A stretch of 64,000 nt of DNA, taken from the NCBI RefSeq assembly GCF_044647545.1, contig NZ_CP172818.1; one strand, 5' to 3'. Position 1 is the stretch's first letter; each line of letters begins with the position of its first letter. Positions 15,592 through 64,000 of the stretch are shown here, piece by piece. The notes below the pieces were generated by a model, which saw nothing but the letters and a program-made list of their open reading frames with translations, was not told the origin of the DNA and ran no database searches. A program made the position numbers and the translations under genes. This DNA is from Escherichia coli (GTDB taxonomy: Bacteria; Pseudomonadota; Gammaproteobacteria; Enterobacterales; Enterobacteriaceae).

Positions 15592-15744
15592 GCCTGATGC
15601 GCTGGGCAACAAAACCTGTAGAAATTATTGCTTTTGTAGGCCAGATAAGGCGTTTACGCCGCATCTGGCATCTGAGCATGATGCCTGATGCGACGCTGGT
15701 CGCGTCTTATCAGGCCTACGACTTTCTCCGCATCCGGCATAAAC
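15592..15744. repeat. REP/BIME cluster in the hemN-glnG intergenic region
   Basis: Repeated GCCTGATGCG...CTTATCAGGCCTAC and GGCCAGATAAGGCGTTTACGCCGCATC units. Confidence 0.6.
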
Positions 15745-18560: not shown

Positions 18561-18583
18561 AGTTTCCCGAACAACTTCAACTA

Positions 18584-20365: not shown

Positions 20366-22189
20366 GTGATCGAAAAATTGCGTAATATCGCCATCATCGC
20401 GCACGTAGACCATGGTAAAACCACCCTGGTAGACAAGCTGCTCCAACAATCCGGTACGTTCGACTCTCGTGCCGAAACCCAAGAGCGCGTGATGGACTCC
20501 AACGATTTGGAGAAAGAGCGTGGGATTACCATCCTCGCGAAAAACACCGCTATCAAATGGAATGATTACCGTATCAACATCGTTGATACCCCGGGGCACG
20601 CCGACTTCGGTGGTGAAGTTGAACGTGTAATGTCCATGGTAGACTCAGTGCTGCTGGTGGTTGACGCATTTGACGGCCCGATGCCGCAAACGCGCTTCGT
20701 AACCAAAAAAGCGTTTGCTTACGGCCTGAAGCCGATTGTTGTTATCAACAAAGTTGACCGCCCTGGCGCGCGTCCTGATTGGGTTGTGGATCAGGTATTC
20801 GATCTGTTCGTTAACCTCGACGCGACCGACGAGCAGCTGGACTTCCCGATCGTTTACGCTTCTGCGCTGAATGGTATCGCGGGTCTGGACCACGAAGATA
20901 TGGCGGAAGACATGACCCCGCTGTATCAGGCGATTGTTGACCACGTTCCTGCGCCGGACGTTGACCTTGACGGTCCGTTCCAGATGCAGATTTCTCAGCT
21001 CGATTACAACAGCTATGTTGGCGTTATCGGCATTGGCCGCATCAAGCGCGGTAAAGTGAAGCCGAACCAACAGGTTACTATCATCGATAGCGAAGGCAAA
21101 ACCCGCAACGCGAAAGTCGGTAAAGTGCTGGGCCACCTCGGTCTGGAACGTATCGAAACCGATCTGGCGGAAGCTGGCGATATCGTGGCGATCACGGGTC
21201 TTGGCGAACTGAACATTTCTGACACCGTTTGCGACACGCAAAACGTTGAAGCGCTGCCGGCACTCTCCGTTGATGAGCCGACCGTTTCTATGTTCTTCTG
21301 CGTTAACACCTCGCCGTTCTGCGGTAAAGAAGGTAAGTTCGTAACGTCTCGTCAGATCCTGGATCGTCTGAACAAAGAACTGGTACACAACGTTGCGCTG
21401 CGCGTAGAAGAAACCGAAGACGCCGATGCGTTCCGCGTTTCTGGTCGTGGCGAACTGCACCTGTCTGTTCTTATCGAAAACATGCGTCGTGAAGGTTTCG
21501 AACTGGCGGTATCCCGTCCGAAAGTAATCTTCCGTGAAATCGACGGTCGTAAACAAGAGCCGTATGAAAACGTGACGCTGGACGTTGAAGAACAGCATCA
21601 GGGTTCTGTGATGCAGGCGCTGGGCGAACGTAAAGGCGACCTGAAAAACATGAATCCAGACGGTAAAGGCCGCGTACGTCTCGACTACGTGATCCCAAGC
21701 CGTGGTCTGATTGGCTTCCGTTCTGAGTTCATGACCATGACTTCCGGTACTGGTCTGCTGTACTCCACCTTCAGCCACTACGACGACGTACGTCCGGGCG
21801 AAGTGGGTCAGCGTCAGAACGGTGTACTGATCTCTAACGGTCAGGGTAAAGCGGTCGCGTTCGCGCTGTTCGGTCTGCAGGATCGCGGTAAGCTGTTCCT
21901 CGGTCACGGTGCAGAAGTTTACGAAGGTCAGATTATCGGTATTCATAGCCGCTCTAACGACCTGACTGTAAACTGCCTGACCGGTAAGAAACTGACCAAC
22001 ATGCGTGCTTCCGGTACTGACGAAGCCGTTGTTCTGGTTCCGCCTATCCGCATGACTCTGGAACAAGCTCTGGAGTTCATCGATGATGACGAACTGGTAG
22101 AAGTGACTCCGACCTCTATCCGTATTCGTAAACGTCACCTGACGGAAAACGATCGTCGTCGCGCCAACCGCGCACCGAAAGACGATTAA
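20366..22189 (+). CDS. typA: Translational GTPase TypA/BipA
   Basis: 607 aa, G-domain motifs AHVDHGKTT and DTPGH, EF-G-like domains. Confidence 0.96.
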
Positions 22190-22206
22190 TTTCGTTTTTT
22201 AGTTAT

Positions 22207-22239
22207 AAAAAACCTGCCATCGCTGGCAGGTTTTTTTTT
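22207..22239 (+). terminator. Rho-independent terminator downstream of typA
   Basis: AAAAAACCTGCCATCGCTGGCAGG followed by TTTTTTTTT. Confidence 0.7.
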
Positions 22240-22405
22240 GCCTGTCGTGAGCGCACACCAATGCGAGTATCTCCCTTATAAGTCTGTGGTTACGTCAATA
22301 GAGAGCTTTGTCACAATTATCTGCAAAGTCATACGCCGTTAATTGCTTTCTTTTTTGGCGTAAGCGTAAGATGCTTCATCTGGTTTAAACCAAAAGGATT
22401 AAACA

Positions 22406-23115
22406 ATGGCGGAGAATCAATCCACCGTAGAAAATGCAAAAGAGAAACTGGATCGGTGGTTGAAAGATGGCATCACCACGCCGGGTGGAAAACTCCCTTC
22501 AGAAAGAGAGCTGGGAGAACTGCTGGGCATTAAACGTATGACGCTGCGCCAGGCGTTGTTGAACCTCGAGGCAGAATCCAAAATCTTCCGTAAGGATTGT
22601 AGGGGTGGTTCGTGACCCAGCCGCGATTTAATTACAGTCCGGAGCTGTCAGCGAGCTTTCAGCGGGCCGCAATTGAGCAAGGACGAGAGCCTTCCTGGGG
22701 GTTTACCGAGAAAAACCGTACCAGCGATATTCCCGAGACGCTCGCGCCACTGATCGCAGTGACACCATCAACTGAACTCTATCGCATCACCGGCTGGGGG
22801 GCGCTGGAAGGACATAAAGTTTTCTATCACGAAACATATATTAATCCTGAAGTTGCTCCGGGCTTTATTGAACAACTTGAAAACCACTCATTTTCTGCAG
22901 TCTGGGAAAAGTGCTACCAAAAAGAGACGGTAGTAAAAAAATTGATTTTCAAACCCGTCAGAATGCCGGGCGATATCAGCAAGTATCTTGGCGGTTCTGC
23001 GGGTATGCCAGCGATCTTAATTGAAAAGCATCGCGCCGACCAGCAAGGCAATATTGTCCAAATAGATATTGAATATTGGCGATTTGAGGCCGTAGACCTC
23101 ATCATTAATCTGTAG
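22406..23115 (+). pseudogene. yihL: GntR-family regulator YihL, split by an apparent 1 bp deletion near 22601-22610
   Basis: ORFs 22406..22615 (69 aa, winged HTH) and 22612..23115 (167 aa) lie in different frames; combined length equals the 236 aa expected for intact YihL. Confidence 0.7.
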
Positions 23116-23122
23116 GTGTTTT

Positions 23123-24103
23123 ATGGTGACAATAAATAACGCAAGAAAGATTCTACAACGTGTCGACACTCTTCCTCTTTATTTACATGCTTATGCCTTT
23201 CATTTAAATATGCGGCTGGAAAGAGTGTTGCCTGCTGATTTACTTGATATCGCAAGTGAAAATAATCTACGTGGCGTCAAAATCCATGTTCTCGATGGCG
23301 AGCGTTTTTCTCTTGGTAATATGGACGATAAAGAACTCTCTGCCTTTGGGGATAAAGCCCGCCGTCTGAACCTTGATATTCATATTGAAACCAGCGCCTC
23401 AGATAAGGCATCTATTGACGAAGCCGTCGCCATCGCGTTGAAAACTGGGGCATCGTCCGTACGTTTTTATCCACGTTATGAAGGTAATTTGCGCGACGTA
23501 TTATCGATTATCGCTAACGACATTGCCTATGTACGGGAAACGTATCAGGACAGCGGCCTGACTTTTACGATCGAGCAGCATGAAGATTTAAAAAGTCATG
23601 AGCTGGTGTCGCTGGTCAAAGAAAGTGAGATGGAATCTCTTTCCTTACTGTTTGATTTTGCGAACATGATCAATGCAAATGAGCATCCCATCGACGCTTT
23701 AAAAACGATGGCACCGCATATTACCCAGGTCCATATCAAAGATGCCTTGATCGTTAAAGAACCGGGTGGCCTGGGTCATAAAGCCTGTATTTCAGGTCAG
23801 GGTGATATGCCGTTCAAAGCGTTATTAACGCACCTTATCTGCCTGGGTGATGATGAGCCGCAGGTGACGGCATATGGCCTGGAAGAAGAGGTTGATTACT
23901 ATGCGCCGGCGTTCCGCTTTGAAGACGAAGATGATAATCCGTGGATCCCTTATCGCCAGATGAGTGAAACACCATTGCCAGAAAATCATTTACTGGATGC
24001 GCGGTTACGTAAAGAAAAAGAAGATGCAATTAATCAGATAAATCATGTGCGTAACGTACTACAACAAATCAAACAAGAGGCAAACCATCTTCTGAACCAC
24101 TAA
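23123..24103 (+). CDS. yihM: Sugar phosphate isomerase/epimerase (xylose isomerase-like TIM barrel) YihM
   Basis: 326 aa ORF; synteny yihL-yihM-yihN. Confidence 0.85.
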   Translation: MVTINNARKILQRVDTLPLYLHAYAFHLNMRLERVLPADLLDIASENNLRGVKIHVLDGERFSLGNMDDKELSAFGDKARRLNLDIHIETSASDKASIDEAVAIALKTGASSVRFYPRYEGNLRDVLSIIANDIAYVRETYQDSGLTFTIEQHEDLKSHELVSLVKESEMESLSLLFDFANMINANEHPIDALKTMAPHITQVHIKDALIVKEPGGLGHKACISGQGDMPFKALLTHLICLGDDEPQVTAYGLEEEVDYYAPAFRFEDEDDNPWIPYRQMSETPLPENHLLDARLRKEKEDAINQINHVRNVLQQIKQEANHLLNH

Positions 24104-24204
24104 TAAGTTTTAACTCATACGCAGTTAATAAAACCATTCCATATGAATGGTCGGTATCTTATTGCCTTTAAAACAGTGATTTTAAAAATCGCTTAGGGGA
24201 TGTT

Positions 24205-25470
24205 ATGCTCACGAAAAAGAAATGGGCGTTATTTAGTCTATTAACACTGTGTGGCGGTACAATTTATAAATTACCGTCGCTGAAAGATGCGTTTTATATC
24301 CCGATGCAGGAATATTTCCATTTGACCAATGGTCAAATTGGTAATGCTATGTCGGTAAACTCATTTGTCACCACAGTGGGCTTTTTTCTGTCTATTTATT
24401 TTGCCGATAAACTACCGCGCAGATACACCATGTCATTCTCACTCATTGCGACAGGATTACTGGGTGTTTATTTGACGACAATGCCGGGGTATTGGGGCAT
24501 CCTCTTTGTCTGGGCGCTATTTGGCGTTACTTGCGACATGATGAACTGGCCGGTCTTGCTCAAGTCGGTAAGTCGATTGGGCAATAGCGAACAACAAGGT
24601 CGGTTGTTTGGCTTCTTCGAAACAGGGCGTGGCATTGTCGATACCGTGGTGGCATTTTCTGCGTTGGCAGTATTTACCTGGTTTGGCAGTGGCTTATTAG
24701 GTTTTAAAGCAGGCATCTGGTTCTATTCCCTTATTGTGATTGCCGTAGGCATTATTATTTTCTTTGTCCTGAATGACAAAGAAGAGGCACCGTCCGTTGA
24801 GGTGAAAAAAGAAGACGGAGCATCGAAAAACACCAGTATGACCTCGGTGCTGAAAGACAAAACTATCTGGCTTATCGCTTTTAACGTCTTCTTCGTTTAC
24901 GCGGTTTACTGTGGCCTGACATTCTTCATTCCATTCCTGAAAAACATCTATCTATTGCCCGTTGCGCTGGTGGGGGCTTACGGCATCATTAACCAATACT
25001 GTCTGAAAATGATTGGTGGACCGATTGGTGGCATGATTTCAGATAAGATCCTGAAATCGCCAAGTAAATATCTATGCTACACCTTTATCATTAGTACCGC
25101 TGCGCTCGTACTGTTGATTATGCTGCCGCACGAAAGTATGCCGGTCTATTTAGGGATGGCATGTACGCTGGGCTTTGGCGCGATAGTCTTTACACAGCGA
25201 GCCGTATTTTTTGCACCTATCGGCGAAGCAAAAATTGCTGAAAATAAAACAGGTGCGGCGATGGCGTTGGGTAGCTTTATTGGTTACGCTCCGGCGATGT
25301 TCTGCTTCAGTCTGTATGGCTACATTCTGGATTTAAATCCGGGGATTATTGGCTACAAAATCGTGTTTGGCATTATGGCCTGCTTCGCATTCAGTGGTGC
25401 GGTGGTTTCCGTAATGCTGGTTAAGCGTATTAGCCAACGTAAGAAAGAGATGCTGGCGGCTGAAGCTTAA
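24205..25470 (+). CDS. yihN: MFS transporter YihN
   Basis: 421 aa ORF with ~12 hydrophobic segments. Confidence 0.85.
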   Translation: MLTKKKWALFSLLTLCGGTIYKLPSLKDAFYIPMQEYFHLTNGQIGNAMSVNSFVTTVGFFLSIYFADKLPRRYTMSFSLIATGLLGVYLTTMPGYWGILFVWALFGVTCDMMNWPVLLKSVSRLGNSEQQGRLFGFFETGRGIVDTVVAFSALAVFTWFGSGLLGFKAGIWFYSLIVIAVGIIIFFVLNDKEEAPSVEVKKEDGASKNTSMTSVLKDKTIWLIAFNVFFVYAVYCGLTFFIPFLKNIYLLPVALVGAYGIINQYCLKMIGGPIGGMISDKILKSPSKYLCYTFIISTAALVLLIMLPHESMPVYLGMACTLGFGAIVFTQRAVFFAPIGEAKIAENKTGAAMALGSFIGYAPAMFCFSLYGYILDLNPGIIGYKIVFGIMACFAFSGAVVSVMLVKRISQRKKEMLAAEA

Positions 25471-25475
25471 TTAAT

Positions 25476-25553
<78 letters not shown>

Positions 25554-25560
25554 TTTCACA

Positions 25561-26253
25561 TCAGAAGAAATACTTCGTCCCGATACGAATCTGGTTTTGC
25601 TCGCGGTGGTACGGTTCGACATTACGATCTAACCAGCGCAATTCAATATAGGGCAACCAGTGCTCATTAATGCGATAACGGAAGGTGTTAGTGATTTCCC
25701 AGTGATGCTTCGTACCATTGCTGCTATTGAAATCATTAATGTTATAAAAATAATGCGGTTCAAAGGTATATGAGAACTTATCGGTAATAATAAAGTTCCA
25801 GTAGTTGCCAATCTCGTAGCTGTCATTATTATCCAGATCACCGTTCAAATCGGTTGAGCTGTAGTTATTATGGTTAAAACGATTACGTACCGTCAGGTTA
25901 AACCATGGAGTAAATTTGTAGTTAACATCCAGATAAACAGCACCACCCGAACCGATACTCTTATCATTAATTAAGCCACCGGGCTGGATGGTTAATTTAT
26001 CGGTTGGTTTGAATAACGGATACCAACCTTCGATTTCGTTATATCCATGTTTGAGTTCATCTTCTCGCTGAAAGGTGTAGGTATTGGTTAACATAATACC
26101 CGCGCCCATATCGAAGTTATAACCCACACGTAGCATAACCTCGCCCTGATCGGAGGCGAGATTATATGCCTCCCTGTTTTCGACGTATGCGCCAGCAAAT
26201 ACCGAGGCAGAGGTCAGAGAGGATAATAGAATTATTGCATTAATCTTTTTCAT
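25561..26253 (-). CDS. ompL: Outer membrane porin OmpL
   Basis: 230 aa from MKKINAIILLSSLTSASVFA (signal peptide) ending in C-terminal Phe (..KYFF), beta-barrel-like composition. Confidence 0.85.
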   Translation of the reverse strand: MKKINAIILLSSLTSASVFAGAYVENREAYNLASDQGEVMLRVGYNFDMGAGIMLTNTYTFQREDELKHGYNEIEGWYPLFKPTDKLTIQPGGLINDKSIGSGGAVYLDVNYKFTPWFNLTVRNRFNHNNYSSTDLNGDLDNNDSYEIGNYWNFIITDKFSYTFEPHYFYNINDFNSSNGTKHHWEITNTFRYRINEHWLPYIELRWLDRNVEPYHREQNQIRIGTKYFF

Positions 26254-26319
26254 AATAAGTCCATTTTTAAACGTAGGGAGGCCGCCACCCACCAGGATGG
26301 AAATAGCGGCTATTGACAT

Positions 26320-27729
26320 TTATAACGTTACGGAAGCCGTTTTTTCTTCTGTCGCCATCTCTTTATTTTTGCGTTGGTTGATTTCCTCAATAATCAATGC
26401 AAACCGTTTTTCATTGAGTGTGTAAAAGAATCCCATCGTCAATGCAGCAATAATTGCCAGTGCACAAGGCCAGATAAAAATGAGCTGACGCAAACCCTGT
26501 AATGTCGCATCACTTTGCGCGATGTTGGGAACATAACCGATTTGCGTCAGCATAATGCCTGGCAAGAAGCCAGCAAGTGCGGCAGAAATTTTACGAAAGA
26601 AGGTATAACCGGTATAAACAGAACCTTCGGCACGAATACCGGTTTTCCATTCACCGTAATCTACGGTATCTGGCACCAGTGCCCAGTTCAGGCTGTTTAC
26701 AAAGGCCGTGCCAAAAAAGGCGACACAAGAGAACATGACGAAAGTGAAAGAGTTACTTCCCCAGAAATAATTCAGGATATCACCAACCGCCCATAGCACC
26801 ATGCCAGCTAAATAAACCTGTTTTTTACCAAAACATTTTACAGTTAATGGCACCAGTAATACGCCGACGAGGATACATCCCATACTGAAAAATCCCATCC
26901 ACGACAATAAATTAATATCATTCAGCACATACTGGGTGTAATAGACCTGAATCGCCAGTTTGATATTAAATGCCGCCAGGGTACACAGGTTAGCAATGCA
27001 CAAAACCAGCAATGGCGGATTACGAAATATCGCGCAAAAAGATTTGAGAATACTGGCTTTATGTCCGGTTGGCGTCGTGTCTACATAATGCTCTTTGACG
27101 CCTCTGTAGCACAGCATCATAAAAATAAAGCCACCAATGGAGAACATCAGTGCCGCGCAGGCATAACCGACGGTGGAGTCAGAAAAAAGCGACTGCAATG
27201 GAATAAATGCTACGGTACAAATCAATAGCCCTATGGTTGCGCCGCCCTGGCGGTAAGCCGCAAGCTGCGCGCGCTCATTCGGGTTTTTGGTAATTGCCGG
27301 GATCATCGCGCCATACGAGCAGTTCATCAGACTGTATGAAAGTCCAAACATCATAAACAGCGCGGTGGCAATCGTCGTTTTAACCGGCAAACTAAAAGTG
27401 GTGGCGATAAACTGGAGCGTTGCAATTAACGCCGCCGGAACCGCTGCATATAAAATAAAGGGACGAAATTTGCCTTTAGGCCCAATATTTTTCCGCGAGT
27501 CGAGTAAAAATCCGGTGAGCATATCGGTAAATGCGGTAAAAAACTTCGCCACCAGAAAGATAATCCCGCCATAGTAAGCAGGCATCCCTAATTCATCGGT
27601 ATAAAATTTGAGGAGATACAGAGTACCGATGCAGAGCATTAAATTCGAACCGACGTCGCCCATACCATAGGCGATTTTTTCCCGCAGATTCAGTCTTAAT
27701 GTCAGTGGATTATGGTCAGACATAATCAC
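26320..27729 (-). CDS. yihO: GPH-family sulfoquinovose importer YihO
   Basis: 469 aa ORF, sugar:cation symporter motifs (MGDVGSN, ~12 TM); first gene of the sulfoquinovose cluster by synteny. Confidence 0.85.
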   Translation of the reverse strand: MIMSDHNPLTLRLNLREKIAYGMGDVGSNLMLCIGTLYLLKFYTDELGMPAYYGGIIFLVAKFFTAFTDMLTGFLLDSRKNIGPKGKFRPFILYAAVPAALIATLQFIATTFSLPVKTTIATALFMMFGLSYSLMNCSYGAMIPAITKNPNERAQLAAYRQGGATIGLLICTVAFIPLQSLFSDSTVGYACAALMFSIGGFIFMMLCYRGVKEHYVDTTPTGHKASILKSFCAIFRNPPLLVLCIANLCTLAAFNIKLAIQVYYTQYVLNDINLLSWMGFFSMGCILVGVLLVPLTVKCFGKKQVYLAGMVLWAVGDILNYFWGSNSFTFVMFSCVAFFGTAFVNSLNWALVPDTVDYGEWKTGIRAEGSVYTGYTFFRKISAALAGFLPGIMLTQIGYVPNIAQSDATLQGLRQLIFIWPCALAIIAALTMGFFYTLNEKRFALIIEEINQRKNKEMATEEKTASVTL

Positions 27730-27765
27730 TCCTTATAACGCCCCGCAGGGCGTTGTTTATTATAA

Positions 27766-29187
27766 TTACGCCGTGCGTTTACGGGCTTCTATCTCTTCAA
27801 CAATGCGGACGTACATCTTCTCGTTCAGACTGTAGAAGCAACCCATTGCCACGATGGTGACTACTGCCAGTGCGCTTGGGTAGATGAAGATCAGTTGGCG
27901 CAACCCTTCGATAGTGTGGTCAGCCTGGGCGACGTTTGGCACATAGCCGATTTGCGTCAGCATCCAGCCTGGGAAGAAACCTGCCAGCGCCTGAGATACT
28001 TTGCGAAAGAAGGTGAAACCGGTGTAGACCGTACCTTCCGAACGCACACCGGTGCGCCACTCGCCGTACTCGACGGTGTCGGAAACCAGCGCCCAGTTCA
28101 GGCTGTTAACAAACGCTGAGCCGAAGAATGCCAGGCAGGAGAACGCCACGAAGCTGACCGAACCGCCGCCAAAGAAATAGTTGAGCAGATCGCCAAGCAC
28201 CCAAATCAGCAGGCCGCCGATATAGACCTTCTTCTTACCAAAACGTCTGACTGCGCCGGGCATCAGGAACACGCCGATGAAAATACAGCCCATGCTGAAA
28301 AATCCCATATATGACAACAGGATGGGATCGTTGAGCACGTACTGGGTGTAATAGACCTGAATGGCGAGCTTGACGTTAAACGCCCCTAAAGTGCAGAGGT
28401 TGGCAATACACAGAATGAACAGTGGGCGGTTACCAGCAATCGCGCGGAAAGACTGCAACAAGCCAGGCTTTTTTTGCGCCGGATTGGTAGGTTGGGTTTC
28501 GACATAACGCTCTTTCACGCCCGAGTAGCAGATCCACATAAACAGCAGGCCGAACAGTGAAAACAGCGTGGCGGCGAAGATATAGCCAAGTTGCTGATTA
28601 CCTTCGATAAGATTCATAACCGGCACGAATCCCACCGTACACAGCAGCAGGCCTAATGTAGCGCCACCCTGACGCCATGCTGCCAGCGATGCACGTTCGT
28701 TGGGGTTTTTAGTAATAGCGGGGACCATCGCGCCATACGAGCAGTTCATCATGCTGAAAAACAGTCCGTAAAGCATAAACAGGATGGTGGCCATCACCGT
28801 TTTACCGGTGACATCGAACGGCGTACCGATAAAGTTGGCGATCGCCAGCAGGGTGACCGGGAATGACGCATACAGAATAAAAGGACGGAACTTGCCTTTT
28901 GGGCCGATCTTGCGTCGGGAATCCAGCATGATGCCTGTTCCCATATCGGTAAACGCAGTAAAGAATTTTGAAATCAAAAAGATAATGCCGCCATAGGTGC
29001 CAGGCAGCCCCAGAACGTCGGTATAAAACTTCAAAAGATAAAGCGTACCAATATCCAGCAGGATGTTAGAGGCCAGGTCGCCAATACCGTAAGAGAGTTT
29101 CTCTTTAAAGGGCAGGCGTAAAGTTGCTGGATCTTCCGTTGTGATGTGACTCATCGTTGTTCTCCCTTTGCCCGTGAGTTTCCCCAC
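27766..29187 (-). CDS. yihP: GPH-family transporter YihP (paralog of YihO)
   Basis: 473 aa ORF; strongly similar to the YihO ORF in this window (e.g. LYLLKFYTD, GGATxGLL, FNxKLAIQVYYTQYVLND). Confidence 0.85.
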   Translation of the reverse strand: MGKLTGKGRTTMSHITTEDPATLRLPFKEKLSYGIGDLASNILLDIGTLYLLKFYTDVLGLPGTYGGIIFLISKFFTAFTDMGTGIMLDSRRKIGPKGKFRPFILYASFPVTLLAIANFIGTPFDVTGKTVMATILFMLYGLFFSMMNCSYGAMVPAITKNPNERASLAAWRQGGATLGLLLCTVGFVPVMNLIEGNQQLGYIFAATLFSLFGLLFMWICYSGVKERYVETQPTNPAQKKPGLLQSFRAIAGNRPLFILCIANLCTLGAFNVKLAIQVYYTQYVLNDPILLSYMGFFSMGCIFIGVFLMPGAVRRFGKKKVYIGGLLIWVLGDLLNYFFGGGSVSFVAFSCLAFFGSAFVNSLNWALVSDTVEYGEWRTGVRSEGTVYTGFTFFRKVSQALAGFFPGWMLTQIGYVPNVAQADHTIEGLRQLIFIYPSALAVVTIVAMGCFYSLNEKMYVRIVEEIEARKRTA

Positions 29188-31236: not shown

Positions 31237-31554
31237 AAATAATCTCCATAGAGTATAAAGCTAATATTTCATGCCATCCTGTTGTTACAGGTTTCATTAA
31301 TTAAAGATTGTGTGCTATAAATAAAACCCCATAAGTGATATATAAAAACTTTTTCAGCCCGGCGGATTGCCGCCATTTTTAACCAAAAATGCCAGTTACA
31401 ATAATAACTAACAATAAACGGAGCAGAATCCAGCCGGGAATTCCCATCCCTTTTATCAACATAGAACCGGAGGCAATCAGCAACAAAAAGACCATCACAC
31501 GGAACACTTTGACTGAAAGCGTTTATGCACATATCTCCAACAAGCGAACCGAGA

Positions 31555-31945
31555 ATCAGGAAAACAAAAAACACCAGTTAAAAAAAGAAACATCAAAATC
31601 CCCCCCCCCCGCCCCCCCCGCCCCCCTTTTTGGGGAAAAAAAGGGTCCGAGGCCCCGAATCCCCCGGGCCCAATTCCAGCATACCTACACCCCCGCCCCG
31701 CCCCCCGCCCCGCTCGCCGCTACTCGCCGATACGCCGCGACCATAACGTCAAAACGACAGACAAGAAATAAACATAAAAAAAAAAAAAAAGAAAAGGATC
31801 CCCCTACCCATTAAAAACGTACATACAAACACACAAACAAACAACAAAAAAAAAAATAACGCCCCCCCAACACAAAAAAAAAAACCCCAACAAAAAGAAA
31901 AAAAAAAAAAAAAAAAAAAAAAACACCCCCCAAAAAAAAAAAAAA
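31555..31945. other. Anomalous low-complexity tract (A+C only; homopolymer runs of C and A up to ~26 nt)
   Basis: Directly visible: CCCCCCCCCCCGCCCCCCCCGCCCCCC, AAAAAAAAAAAAAAAAAAAAAAAAAA and similar; G nearly absent for ~250 bp; no plausible coding frame. Confidence 0.9.
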
Positions 31946-32008
31946 CATAATATTTCCTGTTGTGTAAATACAACCCTAAACAATGATCTCGTTCTTTTCT
32001 TAATAAAA

Positions 32009-32920
32009 TTAATTGTGCTGCCCGTGAATATTAAAAAACAGGCGGTGCGTTTTTCCTGGTTCCAGTAATAATAAGTCGATACCTGAATTAAAGGCGTTAG
32101 GCGGGCAACTCATAGGTTCAACTGCCAGTCCCTGACGCTGTAATTTTTCTCCGCTATAAACCTGCACCCAGGGTTGATCGGAACAGAGGCTCACCGAAAG
32201 CGCCTGTTGTGGATGGGTAATGGTTATTTCCCACAGATCATTAGCGGTTTTAAAGGTATGGTCTATTTTTGTCGCGGCTATTTTTGTCGCCCGCGTGAAA
32301 TTTAAATTCAGCTCATCAACGTGGTGAAGCGTTGTCGGATTTGCGTGCTCATCGACGGCATAAACCTGTTCTGCCGGAAGCTGGAAAAGATAGTCATCAA
32401 CAGATGTTAAGTTGCAGGTTAAATAAGGATGAATACCCACACCATAAGGTGCGGTCACAGTACCAATATTCTGGCTTGCGATCTCAACGGAAAGGCCCGT
32501 GCGAGCGTTGAGCGAATAAACAACCTGCGAAGCCAGCATAAACGGATAGCCGTAACTGGGCGGCAGAAAAGCTGTCAGGGTAACGCTGGTGGCGGTTAAT
32601 TCGCTAATTTGCCAGTCACGCCAGGCAAGCAGCCCGTGAATAGCGGCTTTTGAACCATGTTCATTAATGGGTAACTGATATTCCTGCCCCTGATAGCGAT
32701 AACAGCCGTTGGCGATCCGGTTCGGCCACGGAATAAGCACTTTACCCAGATGCGCCAGCGGCATCTCTTCGGGTTTGTGCGGGATGACTAAATGACAACC
32801 CTGAAAGGTTAATTCAGCCAGACCAGCACCAACCGTCACGATAGTCGCGTGATAATCCCCCGCGGCAAGTGAAACGGTTTGTCCACTGCAATGCATGTTG
32901 GTGATTTGCATACGAGGCAC
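32009..32920 (-). CDS. yihR: Aldose 1-epimerase family protein (sulfoquinovose mutarotase) YihR
   Basis: 303 aa ORF; synteny between yihQ and yihS. Confidence 0.85.
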   Translation of the reverse strand: MPRMQITNMHCSGQTVSLAAGDYHATIVTVGAGLAELTFQGCHLVIPHKPEEMPLAHLGKVLIPWPNRIANGCYRYQGQEYQLPINEHGSKAAIHGLLAWRDWQISELTATSVTLTAFLPPSYGYPFMLASQVVYSLNARTGLSVEIASQNIGTVTAPYGVGIHPYLTCNLTSVDDYLFQLPAEQVYAVDEHANPTTLHHVDELNLNFTRATKIAATKIDHTFKTANDLWEITITHPQQALSVSLCSDQPWVQVYSGEKLQRQGLAVEPMSCPPNAFNSGIDLLLLEPGKTHRLFFNIHGQHN

Positions 32921-32978
32921 CTTTATTGAATAACGACATACCCGGCATGTAGCCTGATATGCCGTTATTTCAGCTCAG

Positions 32979-39915: not shown

Positions 39916-40901
39916 GCCAGCTTCCAGGGTTGTCACGGGAAACAAGAGAGAGTATCGCTATGTATCACCTTCGGGTTCCACAAACAGAAGAAGAATTAGA
40001 GCGTTACTATCAGTTTCGCTGGGAAATGTTGCGTAAGCCCCTGCATCAACCGAAAGGTTCGGAACGCGACGCGTGGGATGCGATGGCGCATCACCAGATG
40101 GTCGTCGACGAGCAGGGTAATCTGGTGGCGGTAGGCCGACTGTATATTAATGCCGACAATGAAGCGTCCATTCGCTTTATGGCCGTTCATCCCGACGTGC
40201 AGGACAAAGGGTTAGGAACGCTGATGGCGATGACCCTCGAATCTGTGGCGCGTCAGGAAGGTGTTAAGCGCGTGACCTGTAGCGCCCGCGAAGACGCGGT
40301 GGAGTTTTTCGCCAAGCTGGGGTTTGTTAATCAGGGAGAAATCACCACGCCAACCACCACGCCGATTCGCCATTTTTTGATGATTAAACCCGTTGCCACT
40401 CTGGATGATATTTTGCATCGCGGCGACTGGTGCGCGCAGCTGCAACAGGCGTGGTATGAACACATCCCGCTGAGTGAAAAAATGGGCGTGCGCATTCAGC
40501 AATATACCGGGCAAAAATTTATCACCACCATGCCGGAAACAGGCAATCAGAATCCGCATCACACGCTGTTTGCCGGGAGTTTATTCTCGCTGGCAACGCT
40601 CACCGGTTGGGGGCTTATCTGGCTGATGCTGCGCGAACGCCACCTCGGCGGAACGATTATTCTGGCGGATGCGCATATCCGCTATAGCAAGCCGATTAGC
40701 GGCAAACCTCATGCGGTAGCCGACCTTGGTGCCTTAAGCGGCGATCTCGACCGTCTGGCGCGTGGACGAAAAGCACGGGTGCAGATGCAAGTAGAAATCT
40801 TTGGCGACGAGACGCCGGGTGCAGTGTTTGAAGGCACGTATATCGTTCTGCCCGCGAAGCCATTTGGCCCGTATGAAGAGGGCGGGAACGAAGAAGAGTA
40901 G
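39912..40901 (+). CDS. yiiD: GNAT acetyltransferase / thioesterase fusion protein YiiD (FabY)
   Basis: 329 aa ORF with GNAT region ([15 protein letters not shown]) followed by hotdog-like C-terminal domain. Confidence 0.85.
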
Positions 40902-40904
40902 CGT

Positions 40905-41729
40905 TGGCAGGTGCATTGCACTCCTTGCCCCTGTCATGCGGTGATACAACGCTTCACCTTCATCGCAAAGTGGGTCGTATTCAGCGGTAATGATATGTAC
41001 AGGTGGCAAGCCATTGAAATCATCGCGCCAAAGAGGGCTGGCTTCAGGATGCCTGCGTTCAATGCCTGGCAGGTACATCTCAAAGCCGCTCAGTAAAGTG
41101 TCGCGTGTGATGATGTAATCGTGACGATTGCGTATGTAGCTTTCGAAATGCGCAGTCGCATCAAGCATGGGATAAATTAAGATGACCGAGTTGTGCCGGT
41201 TGCCACTCGCCAGCACGCTTTAATCGCAAAGCAGTTACCAGCGCCAGATGTCCGCCCGCACTGTCACCGGCAAGAGTTATCCGTTGTTTATCAACGCCGA
41301 GTCGTTCGGCGTGTTGCCGACTGAATTCTGCACCTCGTTGCGCATCATCATGGGCGGCGGGGAAAGTATGTCCGGTGCCAGCCGATACTGGACGGCAATA
41401 ACCCGACATTGCCCGTAATAGGCTAACTGGCGCAGCTGGTTGTCGTGAGTTGCGAACCCGCCGCTAACAAAACAGCCACCGTAGTAATAAATTATCGTCG
41501 GGAGTAATGTCGGGGCATTCAGCGGTGACACTATTCGTAAGGTCATCGCTTCAAGTTCGATAGTCTGAATATCTACCCGCGTTTCTGTCTCACCCGCAAG
41601 GACAGCGCTGGCGATATAGCCCTCCCTGCGCTGCGCAATACTTTGTTGACGCGATGAGGGGCGACCCGCAGCGATAAACTCTTCGACTAACTCTGCAATT
41701 CCTTTTTCAGTGCCATAGTAGAACTCATT
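40905..41729 (-). pseudogene. Decayed alpha/beta-hydrolase (hormone-sensitive-lipase family esterase, Aes-like) gene remnant
   Basis: Minus-strand fragments in three or more frames: ..IIYYYGGCFVSGGFATHD.. (oxyanion-hole region), ..ITLAGDSAGGHLALVTALRLK.. (GDSAG nucleophile elbow), ..HIITAEYDPLCDEGEALYHRMTGA.. (acid-residue region); no single frame covers the gene and the 3' end runs into yiiD. Confidence 0.6.
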
Positions 41730-41945
41730 TTGCTGTATGAATGTACAGTTTTATACACCCGTTTTTACTGGATGGATACAGGGAAATTCACGGGCGTGAA
41801 AAATCTGGAAAGCGCCTCGCAAATGTAAAGACAAACCCGGCAGAGATGTGGTTTTGCTGGAGCACTATCAGTAAGCTAGTGGTTTCAAGGGTACGTCAAT
41901 GACGTACAGAAGGGGTTTATTTATCTAAGCCAATGGCGTATAATT

Positions 41946-42256
41946 ATGCTCTTCATCGAAACGGAAATTTTTACTGAAGATGTTCAAAAACTGCTGACCG
42001 ACGATGAATTCAGTCGTTTTCAGTTTTTCCTGGCCTTGAATCCTGACTATGGTGAGGTAATACCTGAAACTGGTGGGTTAAGAAAGGTTCGATGGGTGTC
42101 AGGAGGAAGGGGAAACGTGCTGGTGTCAGGGTTATTTACTTTCATCAGGTTAAACATTATGAGATCAGATTACTGCTTATTTATCGTAAGGGTATTAAAG
42201 ATAATATCTCTCCCCAGGAAAAAGCAATGCTCCGGTTGTTAAATACGAGGTGGTAA
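41946..42256 (+). pseudogene. RelE/ParE-superfamily (HigB-like) toxin with an internal frameshift
   Basis: Frame 1 gives MLFIETEIFTEDVQKLLTDDEFSRFQFFLALNPDYGEVIPETGGLRKVRWVSGGRG..; the +1 frame continues ..GKRAGVRVIYF..EIRLLLIYRKGIKDNISPQEKAMLRLLNTRW and stops at TAA directly abutting the antitoxin ATG. Confidence 0.6.
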
Positions 42257-42547
42257 ATGGATAAGGCACTTTTTGAGCGGTTGACTCACAGCATGGCCCA
42301 GATGAATGAAATTATTGAAGGAACGCGACAGCCTTCGCGGACTTTTGAAGTTGATGCTATGAAAATCAAAGAAATACGCCGCGCTTCAGGGTTGTCACAA
42401 TCTAAATTTGCCGATCTTATTTCTGTAAGCGTAGACACGTTGCGTAACTGGGAGCAGGGGCGACGTTCGCCGACCGGGCCTGCAAAGGCTTTGCTGCGAG
42501 CGATTGCCAATGATCCGCAACATGTGCTGCAAGCACTTAACCGTTAG
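42257..42547 (+). CDS. HTH (XRE-family) HigA-like antitoxin
   Basis: 96 aa ORF with HTH region IRRASGLSQSKFADLISVSVDTLRNWEQGRRSP; translationally coupled (TAAATG) to the upstream toxin frame. Confidence 0.7.
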   Translation: MDKALFERLTHSMAQMNEIIEGTRQPSRTFEVDAMKIKEIRRASGLSQSKFADLISVSVDTLRNWEQGRRSPTGPAKALLRAIANDPQHVLQALNR

Positions 42548-43150
42548 AGGCATGGTTATGCCATACAGAAAGCACCAGCATTCAGAACTCCTGTGAAAGC
42601 GGCGTAGTGCCACCTGCTCAGGAGTTTTGCTATGACCCGTAATCAGTGCTGACCGTTGCCACCCTATGATGCGATTAAAAAAACTCATCGTCGCGCCGAT
42701 GATTGACGTCAATGCTATCGGATGATACCGGGGGTGTTCCAGAAAGATCCAACTTTCCCGAACTGTTACCAACAAAATTATAACGATGAGCAAGTTAAGA
42801 CCGGTTGGTAGCAGTACTGACCGGTCTGTGATGGATGATTAATTTCACCTTAAATCCGGGTGCTGTTAGGATGCTGACATTTTTCGGCTACACCATTCAG
42901 ATTATGCAAATAAAGATCCAATCAAAAAATAAACATCCCTGTATATAATATATTTATAGCACCCATATCTCATCCTGGGCGATAACCCAACCATTTTTGA
43001 TTAACAAATGAAACAACTGCAACGTTCTTATTATTTCTGGAAAACGTCTCGCAAAAACAAAACAGCATGCAAAAATCCGCTTTTTTTAAATGATTTTTCG
43101 GCGTAATTTTCGCACATACATTAATGAGTAATATATGTAAGGTATTGGTA

Positions 43151-43369
43151 ATGGCGATGAATACGGTTTTTCTTCATTTATCAGAAGAGGCAATTAAACG
43201 GCTGAACAAGCTTAGGGGCTGGCGTAAGGTTTCACGATCTGCAATTTTACGCGAAGCGGTTGAGCAATATCTGGAGCGGCAGCAATTTCCGGTGCGTAAA
43301 GCAAAGGGTGGCAGGCAAAGGGGGGAGACAGTAGTTGTTGATGATCAGTGTAAGGAGCATAAGGAATGA
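43151..43369 (+). CDS. yiiE: Ribbon-helix-helix (CopG-like) small regulator YiiE
   Basis: 72 aa from MAMNTVFLHLSEEAIKRLNKLRGWRKVSRSAILREAVEQYLERQ inside ORF 43124..43369. Confidence 0.75.
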   Translation: MAMNTVFLHLSEEAIKRLNKLRGWRKVSRSAILREAVEQYLERQQFPVRKAKGGRQRGETVVVDDQCKEHKE

Positions 43370-43578
43370 CAAAAAATTTATTATTCTTGAATATAAAAAC
43401 CAGATGCCCTTATTCTGGTATTAATACAAGGCTGTTTTACTTGAACTTATAATAACTGCAACTGTTACATCATATCTGGAAAACGCCTCGCGAAATACGA
43501 GAGTTTGGAATAGCAGGTGTCGTCATACCCTATGAACTGTAATCCGGGCGACCAGCGCCACCCGGAAAACGTCAGAGA

Positions 43579-56103: not shown

Positions 56104-56539
56104 TATTGGATTCCATGAAAAAATATAATAGTTAATTGTAACGGCGGGGCGGTTTTGTGATGAGCGCGGATATGTCGTGAAGTCGTGACAATATAAGGCA
56201 GAGTGAAGGATAAATTTTGCGGTGTAAGGCACATATTGATGGGTAAAATAAAGCAGTGAATAAAAAATCATTATTTAATGATGTTGTGAATGTTTAACTG
56301 CCGCACATGTTTTGCAGCAAGGTTATTTATATTTGTGGCTTATGAGTCAGCGTGAATTATATCTAATATTTTTAACGATATTTGGTTAAAAACGGCACTA
56401 TTGTTTATTCCTCAGTTCCAGAAATCAGCGGATTTACTCATATTATACGATACTATCCATCGCCTCTAAGTTGATTAAAAATTCGAAATCACACCTTATA
56501 TTTCTCTATAACTATTCCTTTTGAAACATCTCTTTTTTT

Positions 56540-57125
56540 GGGGAAGAAAAAAAAAAAAAACATTTGTTTGGGGAGGAGAGGGAAAAAAAAAAATTAAGGG
56601 AACAACGAGATTGTGGAAGAAGCCGGAGAGAAAAAAGCGGCAAAAAAAGAGAGAGAGGGGGAAAAAAAGCAGACAAAAAAAGGGAGACGGAAAAAGAGCG
56701 CGAGAAGGGGAAAAAGAGGAGAAGCGGGGAGCGAGAAAAAAAAACCCACCTCTCTTCTTCTCTGGGAAAAAAAAGCGGGAAAATAAAGGGAAAAGAAGGG
56801 GGGAGAAGAGTGGAGAAGACCACAAAAGAGAGGAGTGTTGTTGGAAAGAGAAGAAGTCGCGGGGTCCCCCGCAGGGGGGAGGGGGAGAAAAAGGGGTGTT
56901 TTCGCAAGAAAAAGAAGAAGGAAAGAAGGGGGGAGTGCCGGAGGAAGTGTGAGTAGAAAAACGAATGAGGGGGGAGCTATATGAAAGAAGGGGCGGGGGC
57001 AGGGGGTCATTCGGAAAAAAAAAAGAATGTTGAAAAAAAAGAAAGAAAAGGAAAAATTAAAGAAGAAAAGAGGAGGGGAGGGAGAAAGAAAATTCGGGAT
57101 GCGGGGCAGGAGGGTGCGCGGTGCT
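56540..57125. other. Anomalous ~590 bp polypurine (A+G) low-complexity tract
   Basis: Directly visible: GGGGAAGAAAAAAAAAAAAAA..GGGGAGGAGAGGGAAAAAAAAAAA..; plus strand almost devoid of pyrimidine runs; overlapping ORFs in several frames encode only low-complexity K/E/R/G or P/S/F/L peptides. Confidence 0.9.
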
Positions 57126-57152
57126 GGATATTTTCCGGCACTTCGCAACTCA

Positions 57153-57467
57153 TTAAGGCAGGTAAAACACTTCTTGCAGCTCGCTACTGACTGGGCTGTT
57201 ATCCGGGTTAGCTGGCATAACGTCGGTCATATATTTCCACCAACGTTGGCAAACATCAGTACTGGCTACCGCATTCCACCGTTCTTCAGATTCAATCTCT
57301 ACCGTGGCAAACAGCAGATTACGCGCTTTGTCGAGGTAAATGGCGTAGTTATGTGCACCGTGAGATTTCAACACTGCTTCCAGTTCCGGCCAGATTGGAT
57401 TATGCCGACGCTGATACTCTTCGTGGGCGTCGGGGTTAACCTGCATGACAAAGGCTTTGCGGATCAT
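57153..57467 (-). CDS. rhaM: L-rhamnose mutarotase
   Basis: 104 aa [41 protein letters not shown].. Confidence 0.93.
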
Positions 57468-57476
57468 GTTTGCTCC

Positions 57477-58301
57477 TTACAGCGCCAGCGCACTGGCGAG
57501 TGGTGTAACACCGAAACGCTGGCCGAGCGCTATCAGCTCTTCACGACTGATGGTCTGTTTCATGCCGCCCATCGAATAAACCTTCACTAATACTTGTGCT
57601 GATTTTTCTGCGGTGTCGATTAAACCGAATGTTTCATCCAGTGTCGGACCGCTGCCGAAGACGCCGTGGAAGGGCCACAACACCAGCGAATGTTTTTGCA
57701 TTTCCTGTGCGGTCGCCTGGCCGATTTCGTCCGTGCCGGGCACCATCCACGGCAAAATGCCGACGCCATCCGGGAACACTACCAGACACTCGGTGCTGCC
57801 TTCCCAAAGCTGGCGAGTGAAGAGCGCGGTGTCGTTTTCCAGTACGTAGGTAAGGGCGATCAGGTTGGTGGCGTGGCAGTGCATGATCACCCGATCTTTA
57901 CCGTTGGTGGCTTTAATGCGCTCGCAGTGGGAGAGAAAGTGAGCCGGAAGTTCAGAGGTTGGAACGGCTTCGTTGGTTAGCCCCCAGAGAATATGGTAGC
58001 CCGCGCCGTCGCTGTCGACTTTTACGACGCCTAAGTTAGCCGCAGGATCAAGCTGGACGTTACGAAAGAATTTGCCGGAGCCGGTGACAATAAACGGTGT
58101 ATTTGCCAGTAAAGGCATGGGCTGGATGAGCGGGATATAGCGCGGTTGTGCATGAAAGTTGCCGTGATAAGGCGCGATATCGGCGTCATCCAGGCGCAGC
58201 GTCAGGTTACCACCATTGCGCTCGTCCCAGCCTTTCAGCCAGGCGTCGGTGGTGGCTTTGATCATTCCCTGGACAAACCAGGACTGGGTAATGTTTTGCA
58301 T
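57477..58301 (-). CDS. rhaD: Rhamnulose-1-phosphate aldolase
   Basis: 274 aa from [37 protein letters not shown] inside ORF 57477..58394. Confidence 0.95.
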
Positions 58302-58319
58302 GTTCTGTGTTCCTGTTAA

Positions 58320-58737
58320 TTGGACGTCCGTGCCTGTTGCCGGATGTACGATCTGTAGGCCGGATAAGGCACTCGTGCCGCATCCGGCAATCAATGCCTG
58401 ATGCGACGCTGTCGCGTCTTATCAGCCTACAACTATTGCCGACCCTAGCCGGATATGGCGCTCGTGCCGCATCCGGCAATCAATGCCTGATGCGACGCTG
58501 TCGCGTCTTATCAGGCCTACAACTATTGCCGACCTGTAGGCCGGATAAGGCACTTGTGCCGCATCCGGCAACAATGCTGATGCGACGCGTCGCGTCTTAT
58601 CAGGCCTACAACTATTGCCGACCCGTAGCCGATATGCGCTCGTGCCGCATCCCAATCAATGCCGATGCGACGCTGCGCGCTATCAGGCCACAACAGCCGA
58701 CCCGAGGCCGGAAAGGCACGGCCGCATCCGGCAGTGT
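58320..58737. repeat. Tandem REP/BIME array (~4.5 units of ~85 bp) in the rhaD-rhaA intergenic region
   Basis: Repeated GCCGGATAAGGC.CTCGTGCCGCATCCGGCAATCAATGCCTGATGCGACGCTGTCGCGTCTTATCAGGCCTACAACTATTGCCGACC; distal copies progressively lose bases. Confidence 0.8.
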
Positions 58738-61750
<3,013 letters not shown>

Positions 61751-62587
61751 ATGACCGTATTACATAGTGTGGATTTTTTTCCGTCTGGTAACGCGTCCGT
61801 GGCGATAGAACCCCGGCTCCCGCAGGCGGATTTTCCTGAACATCATCATGATTTTCATGAAATTGTGATTGTCGAACATGGCACGGGTATTCATGTGTTT
61901 AATGGGCAGCCCTATACCATCACCGGTGGGACGGTCTGTTTCGTACGCGATCATGATCGGCATCTGTATGAACATACCGATAATCTGTGTCTGACCAATG
62001 TGCTGTATCGCTCGCCGGATCGATTTCAGTTTCTCGCCGGGCTGAATCAGTTGCTGCCACAAGAGCAGGATGGGCAGTATCCGTCTCACTGGCGCGTTAA
62101 CCACAGCGTGTTGCAGCAGGTGCGACAGCTGGTTGCACAGATGGAACAGCAGGAAGGGGAAAATGATTTACCCTCGACCGCCAGTCGCGAGATCTTATTT
62201 ATGCAATTACTGCTCTTGCTGCGTAAAAGCAGTTTGCAGGAGAACCTGGAAAACAGCGCGTCACGTCTCAACTTGCTTCTGGCTTGGCTGGAGGACCATT
62301 TTGCCGATGAGGTGAATTGGGATGCCGTGGCGGATCAATTTTCTCTTTCGCTGCGTACGCTACATCGGCAGCTTAAGCAGAAAACGGGACTGACGCCTCA
62401 GCGTTACCTGAACCGCCTGCGACTGATGAAAGCTCGACATCTGCTACGCCACAGCGAGGCCAGCGTTACTGACATCGCCTATCGCTGCGGATTTAGCGAC
62501 AGTAACCACTTTTCGACGCTTTTTCGCCGAGAGTTTAACTGGTCACCGCGTGATATTCGCCAGGGACGGGATGGCTTTCTGCAATAA
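61751..62587 (+). CDS. rhaS: AraC-family activator RhaS
   Basis: 278 aa ORF with cupin N-domain and C-terminal AraC HTH. Confidence 0.96.
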
Positions 62588-62660
62588 CGCGAATCTTCTC
62601 AACGTATTTGTACGCCATATTGCGAATAATCAACTTCGTTCTCTGGCCGAGGTAGCCACG

Positions 62661-63509
62661 GTGGCGCATCAGTTAAAACTTCTCAAAGATGATTTTTTTG
62701 CCAGCGACCAGCAGGCAGTCGCTGTGGCTGACCGTTATCCGCAAGATGTCTTTGCTGAACATACACATGATTTTTGTGAGCTGGTGATTGTCTGGCGCGG
62801 TAATGGTCTGCATGTACTCAACGATCGCCCTTATCGCATTACCCGTGGCGATCTCTTTTACATTCATGCTGACGATAAACACTCCTACGCTTCCGTTAAC
62901 GATCTGGTTTTGCAGAATATTATTTATTGCCCGGAGCGGCTGAAGCTGAATCTTGACTGGCAGGGAGCGATTCCGGGATTTAGCGCCAGCGCAGGGCAAC
63001 CACACTGGCGCTTAGGTAGCGTGGGGATGGCGCAGGCGCGGCAGGTTATCGGTCAACTTGAGCATGAAAGTAGTCAGCATGTGCCGTTTGCTAACGAAAT
63101 GGCAGAGTTGCTGTTCGGGCAGTTGGTGATGTTGCTGAATCGCCATCGTTACACCAGCGATTCGTTGCCGCCAACATCCAGCGAAACATTGCTGGATAAG
63201 CTGATTACCCGGCTGGCGGCCAGCCTGAAAAGTCCCTTTGCGCTGGATAAATTTTGTGATGAGGCATCGTGCAGTGAGCGCGTTTTGCGTCAGCAATTTC
63301 GCCAGCAGACTGGCATGACCATCAATCAATATCTGCGGCAGGTCAGAGTGTGTCATGCGCAATATCTCCTCCAGCATAGCCGCCTGTTAATCAGTGATAT
63401 TTCGACCGAATGTGGCTTTGAAGATAGTAACTATTTTTCGGTGGTGTTTACCCGGGAAACCGGGATGACGCCCAGCCAGTGGCGTCATCTCAATTCGCAG
63501 AAAGATTAA
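62661..63509 (+). CDS. rhaR: AraC-family activator RhaR (GTG start)
   Basis: 282 aa from (V)[37 protein letters not shown].. inside ORF 62550..63509. Confidence 0.93.
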
Positions 63510-64000
63510 TTCGCCATGCCGATGCCGACGATGTTAGCGGCGACAATAATCACCACACAACCGAGGCTCAACACCGTTACCGGACGGCGTCCTGCATTGT
63601 TCCACTCTTTCAGCACCAGCCCGACGATACCGCCGCACAATACATAGAAGCTCATATGCAGCATCCAACTGATGTAGTCATACTGCGCCGGAATGCGGGC
63701 GTGGCCCCAGGCATAGAAAAAGAATTGCAGATACCACATCAACCGCCCAGTGCTGAGAGTAACACATTGTGAATGATCAGCGGTTTTGCCAGCGAGAAGT
63801 CGGCTTTTAGCGACAAATCTTTCACTTTTGCCAGACGAATGAAGCAGAAACCGAGGTTGATGATCGCGCCGCCTCCCATGATGACAACATAGCTTGGCAG
63901 AGCGACATACAGTGGATCGACGCCCAGTGCGGCAGCGGCTTCATGCATCGGTTTTGCGGCGTTCATCGCAAAGGACATCCCGGCAGAGAAAATGCCGCAC
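63506..64000 (-). pseudogene. rhaT: L-rhamnose-proton symporter RhaT, 3' portion (gene continues past window end), split by an apparent 1 bp deletion near 63739-63742
   Basis: ORFs 63739..63978 (..[16 protein letters not shown]) and 63506..63742 ((L)[19 protein letters not shown]..) are consecutive RhaT segments in different frames. Confidence 0.75.

Follow-up and report, generated by a model that had tools for sequence, protein, structure and literature searches.

The REP325 cluster of E. coli K-12 (naRNA1-6), located between yjdM and yjdN, consists of tandem units with two palindromes each, a short linker and a constant spacer, and is found extragenically within an operon (PMC4550694). Its Y-l-Z2 units are represented in Rfam by the family naRNA4 (RF02564; Qian et al., 2015, PMC4550694). 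DNA gyrase binding and cleavage as well as an association with HU have been reported for BIME-2 elements and for REP325 (PMC4550694 and references therein). The array between rhaA and rhaD analyzed here shares the described layout with REP325. In contrast to REP325, it resides at a different locus (rhaA-rhaD), its linker is 6 nt shorter than in the consensus of the naRNA4 model, and its units 4 and 5 have lost the fit owing to the bases that the record lacks. For REPs at this locus we found no open-access paper pairing rhaA, rhaD and "repetitive extragenic palindromic".

The rhaA-rhaD array and its natural counterparts

The window, i.e., the whole stretch of 64,000 nt that was analyzed, is E. 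coli chromosome extending from the end of an rrn operon via mobAB, polA, glnALG, the yih sulfoquinovose genes, fdo and frv to the rha genes. ST648-type strains, for example FDAARGOS_497, were the closest complete genomes, with 99.6-100% identity across most of the window. Open reading frames and the annotation of matching genomes place the rhaD-rhaA spacer at 58302-58737 (436 nt), between the start codon of rhaD (58301, minus strand) and the stop codon of rhaA (58738). It contains 4.5 REP-pair units (Table 1). The array is extragenic, lies inside the rhaBAD operon from the rhaA stop to the rhaD start and was assigned to the operon strand. Tandem Repeats Finder reported one single array (58359-58733) with a period of 89, 4.3 copies, 84% matches and 11% indels. 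Each unit is composed of two different palindromes with a short linker between them; the units are arranged head to tail, a constant spacer separates them, and their copy number is variable. Units 1-3 exceeded the naRNA4 gathering score of 59.5 bits (Table 1), and the intact homologous arrays of K-12 and ST648-type genomes reached 69-77 bits against the same model. The underlying element is an ordinary BIME-2-type REP cluster, a kind of element already known. In such clusters hairpins of the transcript serve as 3' stabilisers or attenuators and the DNA offers binding sites for gyrase and HU; by analogy, the rhaA-rhaD array may have the same functions. A second BIME-type REP pair of the window (15639-15738) is intact, equals that of the relatives, scored 82.3 bits against naRNA4 and provides an internal control.

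Table 1. Features of the rhaD-rhaA region in the window. Losses refer to the repaired array, scores to the naRNA4 model.
Feature	Coordinates	Strand	State and evidence
rhaD (rhamnulose-1-phosphate aldolase)	57477..58301	-	Intact; start codon adjoins the array; open reading frame, sequence, annotated rhaD in matching genomes
Spacer leader	58302..58352	.	Error-free; 10-nt GGACGTCCGT-type insertion compared to K-12; identical to ST648-type genomes and strain Z1323PEC0014
Unit 1, type A, Y-l-Z2 REP pair	58353..58444	+	Lacks one G at 58425; 65.5 bits versus 74.4 for unit 1 in a relative
Unit 2, type B, GGATATGGCGCTCG variant	58445..58534	+	Lacks two G (58446, 58448); 68.8 bits versus 70.8 in a relative
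Unit 3	58535..58623	+	Equals K-12 unit 3 except for the losses of T 58572, C 58577 and T 58589; 61.2 bits versus 76.6 for K-12 unit 3
Unit 4, type B	58624..58702	+	79 nt versus 92; lacks five G (58629-58653) and eight T (58664-58696)
Terminal half unit, single REP	58703..58737	+	35 nt versus 40; lacks five T (58705-58721); final lesion at 58721
rhaA (L-rhamnose isomerase)	58738..59997	-	Intact; open reading frame, annotation, identity to FDAARGOS_497

Flanks and unit sequence as in the window are found in the rhaA-rhaD arrays of K-12 MG1655, ST648-type strains, Z1323PEC0014, O157:H7 and others. The spacers of K-12 (450 nt) and Z1323PEC0014 (460 nt) hold 4.5 units like that of the window, and the 276-nt spacer of ST648-type strains is made up of unit A and unit B (the GGATATGGCGCTCG variant) and ends with half a unit C. 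Natural spacer lengths in eight genomes across the species were 82, 174, 266, 276, 450, 450 and 460 nt, corresponding to a base length plus n x 92 with n = 0, 1, 2 or 4. While these natural spacers stay within the series and differ by substitutions only, the spacer of the window falls 24 nt short of it. Six natural units (four from K-12, two from ST648) were compared in 15 pairwise combinations. Each measured exactly 92 nt, not the approximately 85 bp given in an earlier description of the array (the sequence-only reading), and they differed by 48 substitutions and 0 gap bases, in agreement with the expectation of that reading that natural copies usually diverge by substitution. The real element is a series of 92-nt units, in each of which a short linker connects a Y palindrome to a Z2 palindrome, and its copy number changes between strains by whole units. 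As natural arrays hold the exact 92-nt register, a rhaA-rhaD spacer whose length departs from the base plus n x 92 series points to a fault in the sequence, and this register test can be reused for other records. A different GC-rich inverted-repeat insert (CCCTCACCCTAACCCTCTCCCC ... GGGAGAGGGCCGGGGTGAGGG) replaces the Y-Z2 units in the rhaD-rhaA spacer of strain JNE23-001 (L013, NZ_AP045064.1, 303-543), where it is followed by a single terminal REP.

Bases missing from the array

An intact reference array of 460 nt was reconstructed from the relatives' own unit sequences in the order A-B-C-B-half C. The 436-nt spacer of the window is an exact subsequence of this repaired array: all 436 bases match, none is substituted or inserted, and 24 bases of the reference are deleted. 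These deletions are distributed over the five units as 1, 2, 3, 13 and 5 (the fifth being a 40-nt half unit). When each of the four full units was compared to the natural unit type closest to it, 0 substitutions and 1, 2, 3 and 13 gap bases were counted. The sequence-only reading had described a deletion-only gradient, and the 24 deletions without any substitution or insertion bear this out; its example strings are present at 58629-58670. It had called the first two or three units near-identical; units 1-3 are not fully clean, with 1, 2 and 3 bases missing. It had also proposed to align the array to the rhaD-rhaA regions of reference genomes and to count indels versus substitutions. Doing so yielded deletions only for the window and substitutions only for the natural units.

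The losses are specific for certain letters. A total of 15 T, 8 G, 1 C and 0 A were deleted, with C being the commonest base in the array. Given the array composition, the chance of finding no more than one A or C among 24 deletions is p = 2.4e-6, and the ratio of G+T to C+A losses was 23 to 1 (p = 3e-6). The losses occurred in episodes, with G only at 58425-58448, T, C and T at 58572-58589, G only at 58629-58653, and T only at 58664-58721. Between 58685 and 58721 none of 9 T was kept, while all 37 A, C and G were; over the following 46 bases 13 of 13 T were retained. The loss density rose from left to right, and then error-free sequence returned abruptly at 58722. Zero differences from FDAARGOS_497 were observed over 57143-58424 and 58722-64000. 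A mutational process acting on duplex DNA with inverted repeats is expected to make no difference between G and C or between T and A, while a process of reading or handling one written strand need not do so; the 23:1 skew is therefore incompatible with double-strand mutation of inverted repeats.

Unit 4 gave no naRNA4 match even at E<=1 because 13 of its bases are missing. Its predicted fold energy was -28.5 kcal/mol compared to -45.0 for an intact unit. According to Rfam scores and folding, the loss of structure is confined to the damaged units.

In 5,426 complete E. coli genomes, identity over the array reached 94.4% at best, increasing to 99.7% after repair. Relatives with the same degraded copies, which according to the sequence-only reading would have spoken against a quality problem, were not among them. 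The degraded string had no exact match in any of 100,044 species-representative genomes, nor in the metagenome contigs, and exact look-ups of two open reading frame products created by the lesions gave no match. Strain Z1323PEC0014, with a left flank as in the window, carries a natural 460-nt spacer that differs from the repaired array by 14 substitutions and 0 gaps; compared to this spacer, the window has 24 bases fewer and none extra. The repaired unit order A-B-C-B-C had no instance among complete genomes, and the junction of B to a full C had no match in metagenome contigs. The two extra units of the window array could themselves be real or artefactual.

Lesions elsewhere in the window

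All differences of the window from FDAARGOS_497 are confined to a few stretches. The two largest lesions, 31308-31936 and 56253-57115, are the only low-complexity zones of the window, and both affect non-palindromic, rather AT-rich accessory coding sequence. At 31308-31936, where ST648-type relatives encode a TauE/SafE exporter, the loss of G and then of T increases from left to right until the sequence turns into junk composed of A and C alone, with extended poly-A and poly-C tracts; from 31937 it is perfect again. At 56253-57115 decay of the same kind begins with G-only losses (56421-56524) and ends in A/G-only junk, followed by an abrupt recovery at 57116 and a TT insertion at 57142. Relatives carry a carbohydrate porin gene between frvA and rhaM in this region (56253-57142).

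Two shorter bursts remove hairpins. At 2940-2944, approximately 43 nt are absent in comparison to the relatives, so that the 5S rRNA gene lacks its 3' end and the rrn terminator hairpin is gone, and the few remaining bases form a subsequence of the lost stretch. At 18562-18570, approximately 35 nt are absent downstream of glnA, including the hairpin CCCGGCGTTGTTGCGCCGGG (CCCGGCG...CGCCGGG); K-12 has an additional REP-containing insert at this point. In the stretch 40897-43507 a clean 160-nt deletion between GTAG direct repeats follows the fabY stop codon, and indels scattered over the stretch, among them a GACC insertion at 41184, split an alpha/beta-hydrolase gene into several open reading frames. 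The best identity of this stretch to any complete genome was 98.7%.

The alignment of the window to K-12 breaks at 2939, 18558, 31254-32018, 40902-42750, 43495-43516 and 56235-57152. The array was counted as a further breakpoint site, given that K-12 and ST648-type strains do not have the same number of copies. All lesion clusters except the yihL deletion coincide with sites of structural difference from K-12, while the conserved core genes are clean. Only one K-12 breakpoint, 32927-32968, is without a lesion.

The sequence-only reading had assumed the same lesion type in the 5S gene, yihL and rhaT. The 5S gene shows a related burst of approximately 43 lost bases, which covers the terminator hairpin. 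In yihL a single A is deleted at 22601, leading to a frameshift that was found in 0 of 4,260 complete genomes carrying yihL; otherwise yihLMN (22765-25587) matches strain 300709 at 100% identity. This 1-bp deletion, unique to the window, could stem from an error or from private mutation. For rhaT the assumption fails. The gene lacks one C at 63745 compared to K-12, and since the independently sequenced FDAARGOS_497, in which rhaT is annotated as frameshifted, has the same deletion, the frameshift is natural. The rhaT lesion is a real lineage pseudogene and not an error.

Origin of the losses

The deletion-only, base-specific and directional pattern of the array is unique to this record and recurs elsewhere in the window. 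Judged from these comparisons, the apparent degradation is very probably a record-level artefact superimposed on an ordinary BIME-2-type array. The losses are absent from independent relatives, their spectrum is letter-specific, strand-specific and directional, and the fault is found again at 31308-31936, 56253-57115, 2940 and 18562. The suspicion of a sequence-quality problem instead of natural divergence, already voiced in the sequence-only reading, is well supported by this pattern. We infer that the losses stem from the reading of the sequence, from consensus building or from subsequent handling. The responsible process would have moved along the plus strand and dropped one type of letter after another, first some G, then T and never A, with a climbing loss density and an abrupt switch to perfect sequence at 58722. 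The same process would have been active at the further sites of the window, at two of which it ran on to two-letter junk. Its choice of sites would not follow palindromes; it would coincide with departures from the K-12 layout and spare conserved core genes. The K-12 breakpoints, together with a unit 3 that equals K-12 unit 3 apart from the losses, point to a record-building step that was perhaps guided by a reference with a K-12-like layout.

Untrimmed low-quality ends of reads or contigs and a weak draft consensus resemble the observed lesions in the rise of errors in one direction, the dominance of deletions, the low-complexity junk, the abrupt recovery and the restriction to one record. 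To our knowledge, a start-stop dropout of certain letters, junk in place of 0.9-1.4 kb of template and the coincidence with non-K-12 sites are not typical of any one nameable platform. No single known technology fits the transient letter-specific episodes, the junk replacing approximately 1.4 kb of template and the one-directional decay altogether. Several candidates were considered by reasoning. In the case of a capillary read tail, the junk replaces too much template. Flow-based under-calling is at odds with the return of G calls once a G episode is over. Had long-read insertions been merged into a naive consensus while unaligned, errors of mixed type would be expected, and the junk in the porin gene would be A/T-rich, while the observed junk consists of A and G. 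If the consensus had been built on a backbone of K-12-like layout, this would fit the K-12 breakpoints and the identity of unit 3 to K-12 unit 3, but it would not fit the inserts absent from K-12. Text corruption after assembly was considered as a candidate cause, likewise by reasoning only.

The sequence-only reading had named GC-rich palindromes as the cause. A sequencing fault specific to them, in which stable hairpins cause band compression, polymerase skipping or signal loss, would hit REP arrays and terminators. The hairpins that make up the array are indeed strong, with about -45 kcal/mol for each unit, and limited support comes from the two short bursts that delete the rrn terminator after the 5S gene and the hairpin downstream of glnA. 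Nevertheless, we regard palindromes as an improbable main or specific trigger. A pattern search found five other REP sites (2969, 12205, 15657-15738, 25539 and 51361) undamaged and without difference from the relatives, and units 1-3 share identical hairpins yet are nearly clean, which shows that position matters and structure does not. Moreover, the largest lesions are located in ordinary, rather AT-rich coding sequence, and nearly all losses are G or T, with 8 G lost versus 1 C, although palindromes contain C and G in equal numbers and a fault driven by hairpins would be expected to affect both equally.

That the deletions are real, with distal REP copies decaying by deletion-biased mutation, for instance slippage or misrepair where one template strand extrudes hairpins, is highly improbable. 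REP/BIME arrays do vary between strains, the flanking rhaD and rhaA are intact, and the window contains a private 1-bp deletion in yihL and a real lineage pseudogene in rhaT. However, natural variation at this locus consists of whole 92-nt units and substitutions and never of single-base indels, as opposed to 24 deletions and 0 substitutions here. The losses are letter-specific and strand-asymmetric up to the removal of 9 of 9 T in a 37-nt run, and the pattern is unique among 5,426 genomes. Furthermore, the matching pattern at the other sites ends in poly-A/poly-C and A/G junk replacing whole genes, which no living lineage would carry in this form. A strand-specific removal of single G and T from distal BIME copies, for example by error-prone repair on the hairpin-extruding strand, has hardly any chance of being correct; if true, it would represent a route of REP decay not described before.

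With a record-level artefact as the favored explanation, the main value of the finding is a quality flag on the window. The sites 2940, 18562, 31308-31936, 40897-43507, 56253-57142, 58425-58721 and possibly 22601 are unfit for inference on REP evolution, pseudogenes or gene content. Not all lesions of the window are spurious, as the rhaT frameshift is real.

The stretch 22237-25550 was compared to positions 22168-27915 of the comparison sequence L003. The window carries yihLMN as in K-12 between flanks that are 100% ST648-type, while ST648-type genomes possess the STM4011-STM4015 radical-SAM cluster at this position. Either the window represents a natural mosaic here, or the record was assembled from mixed sources.
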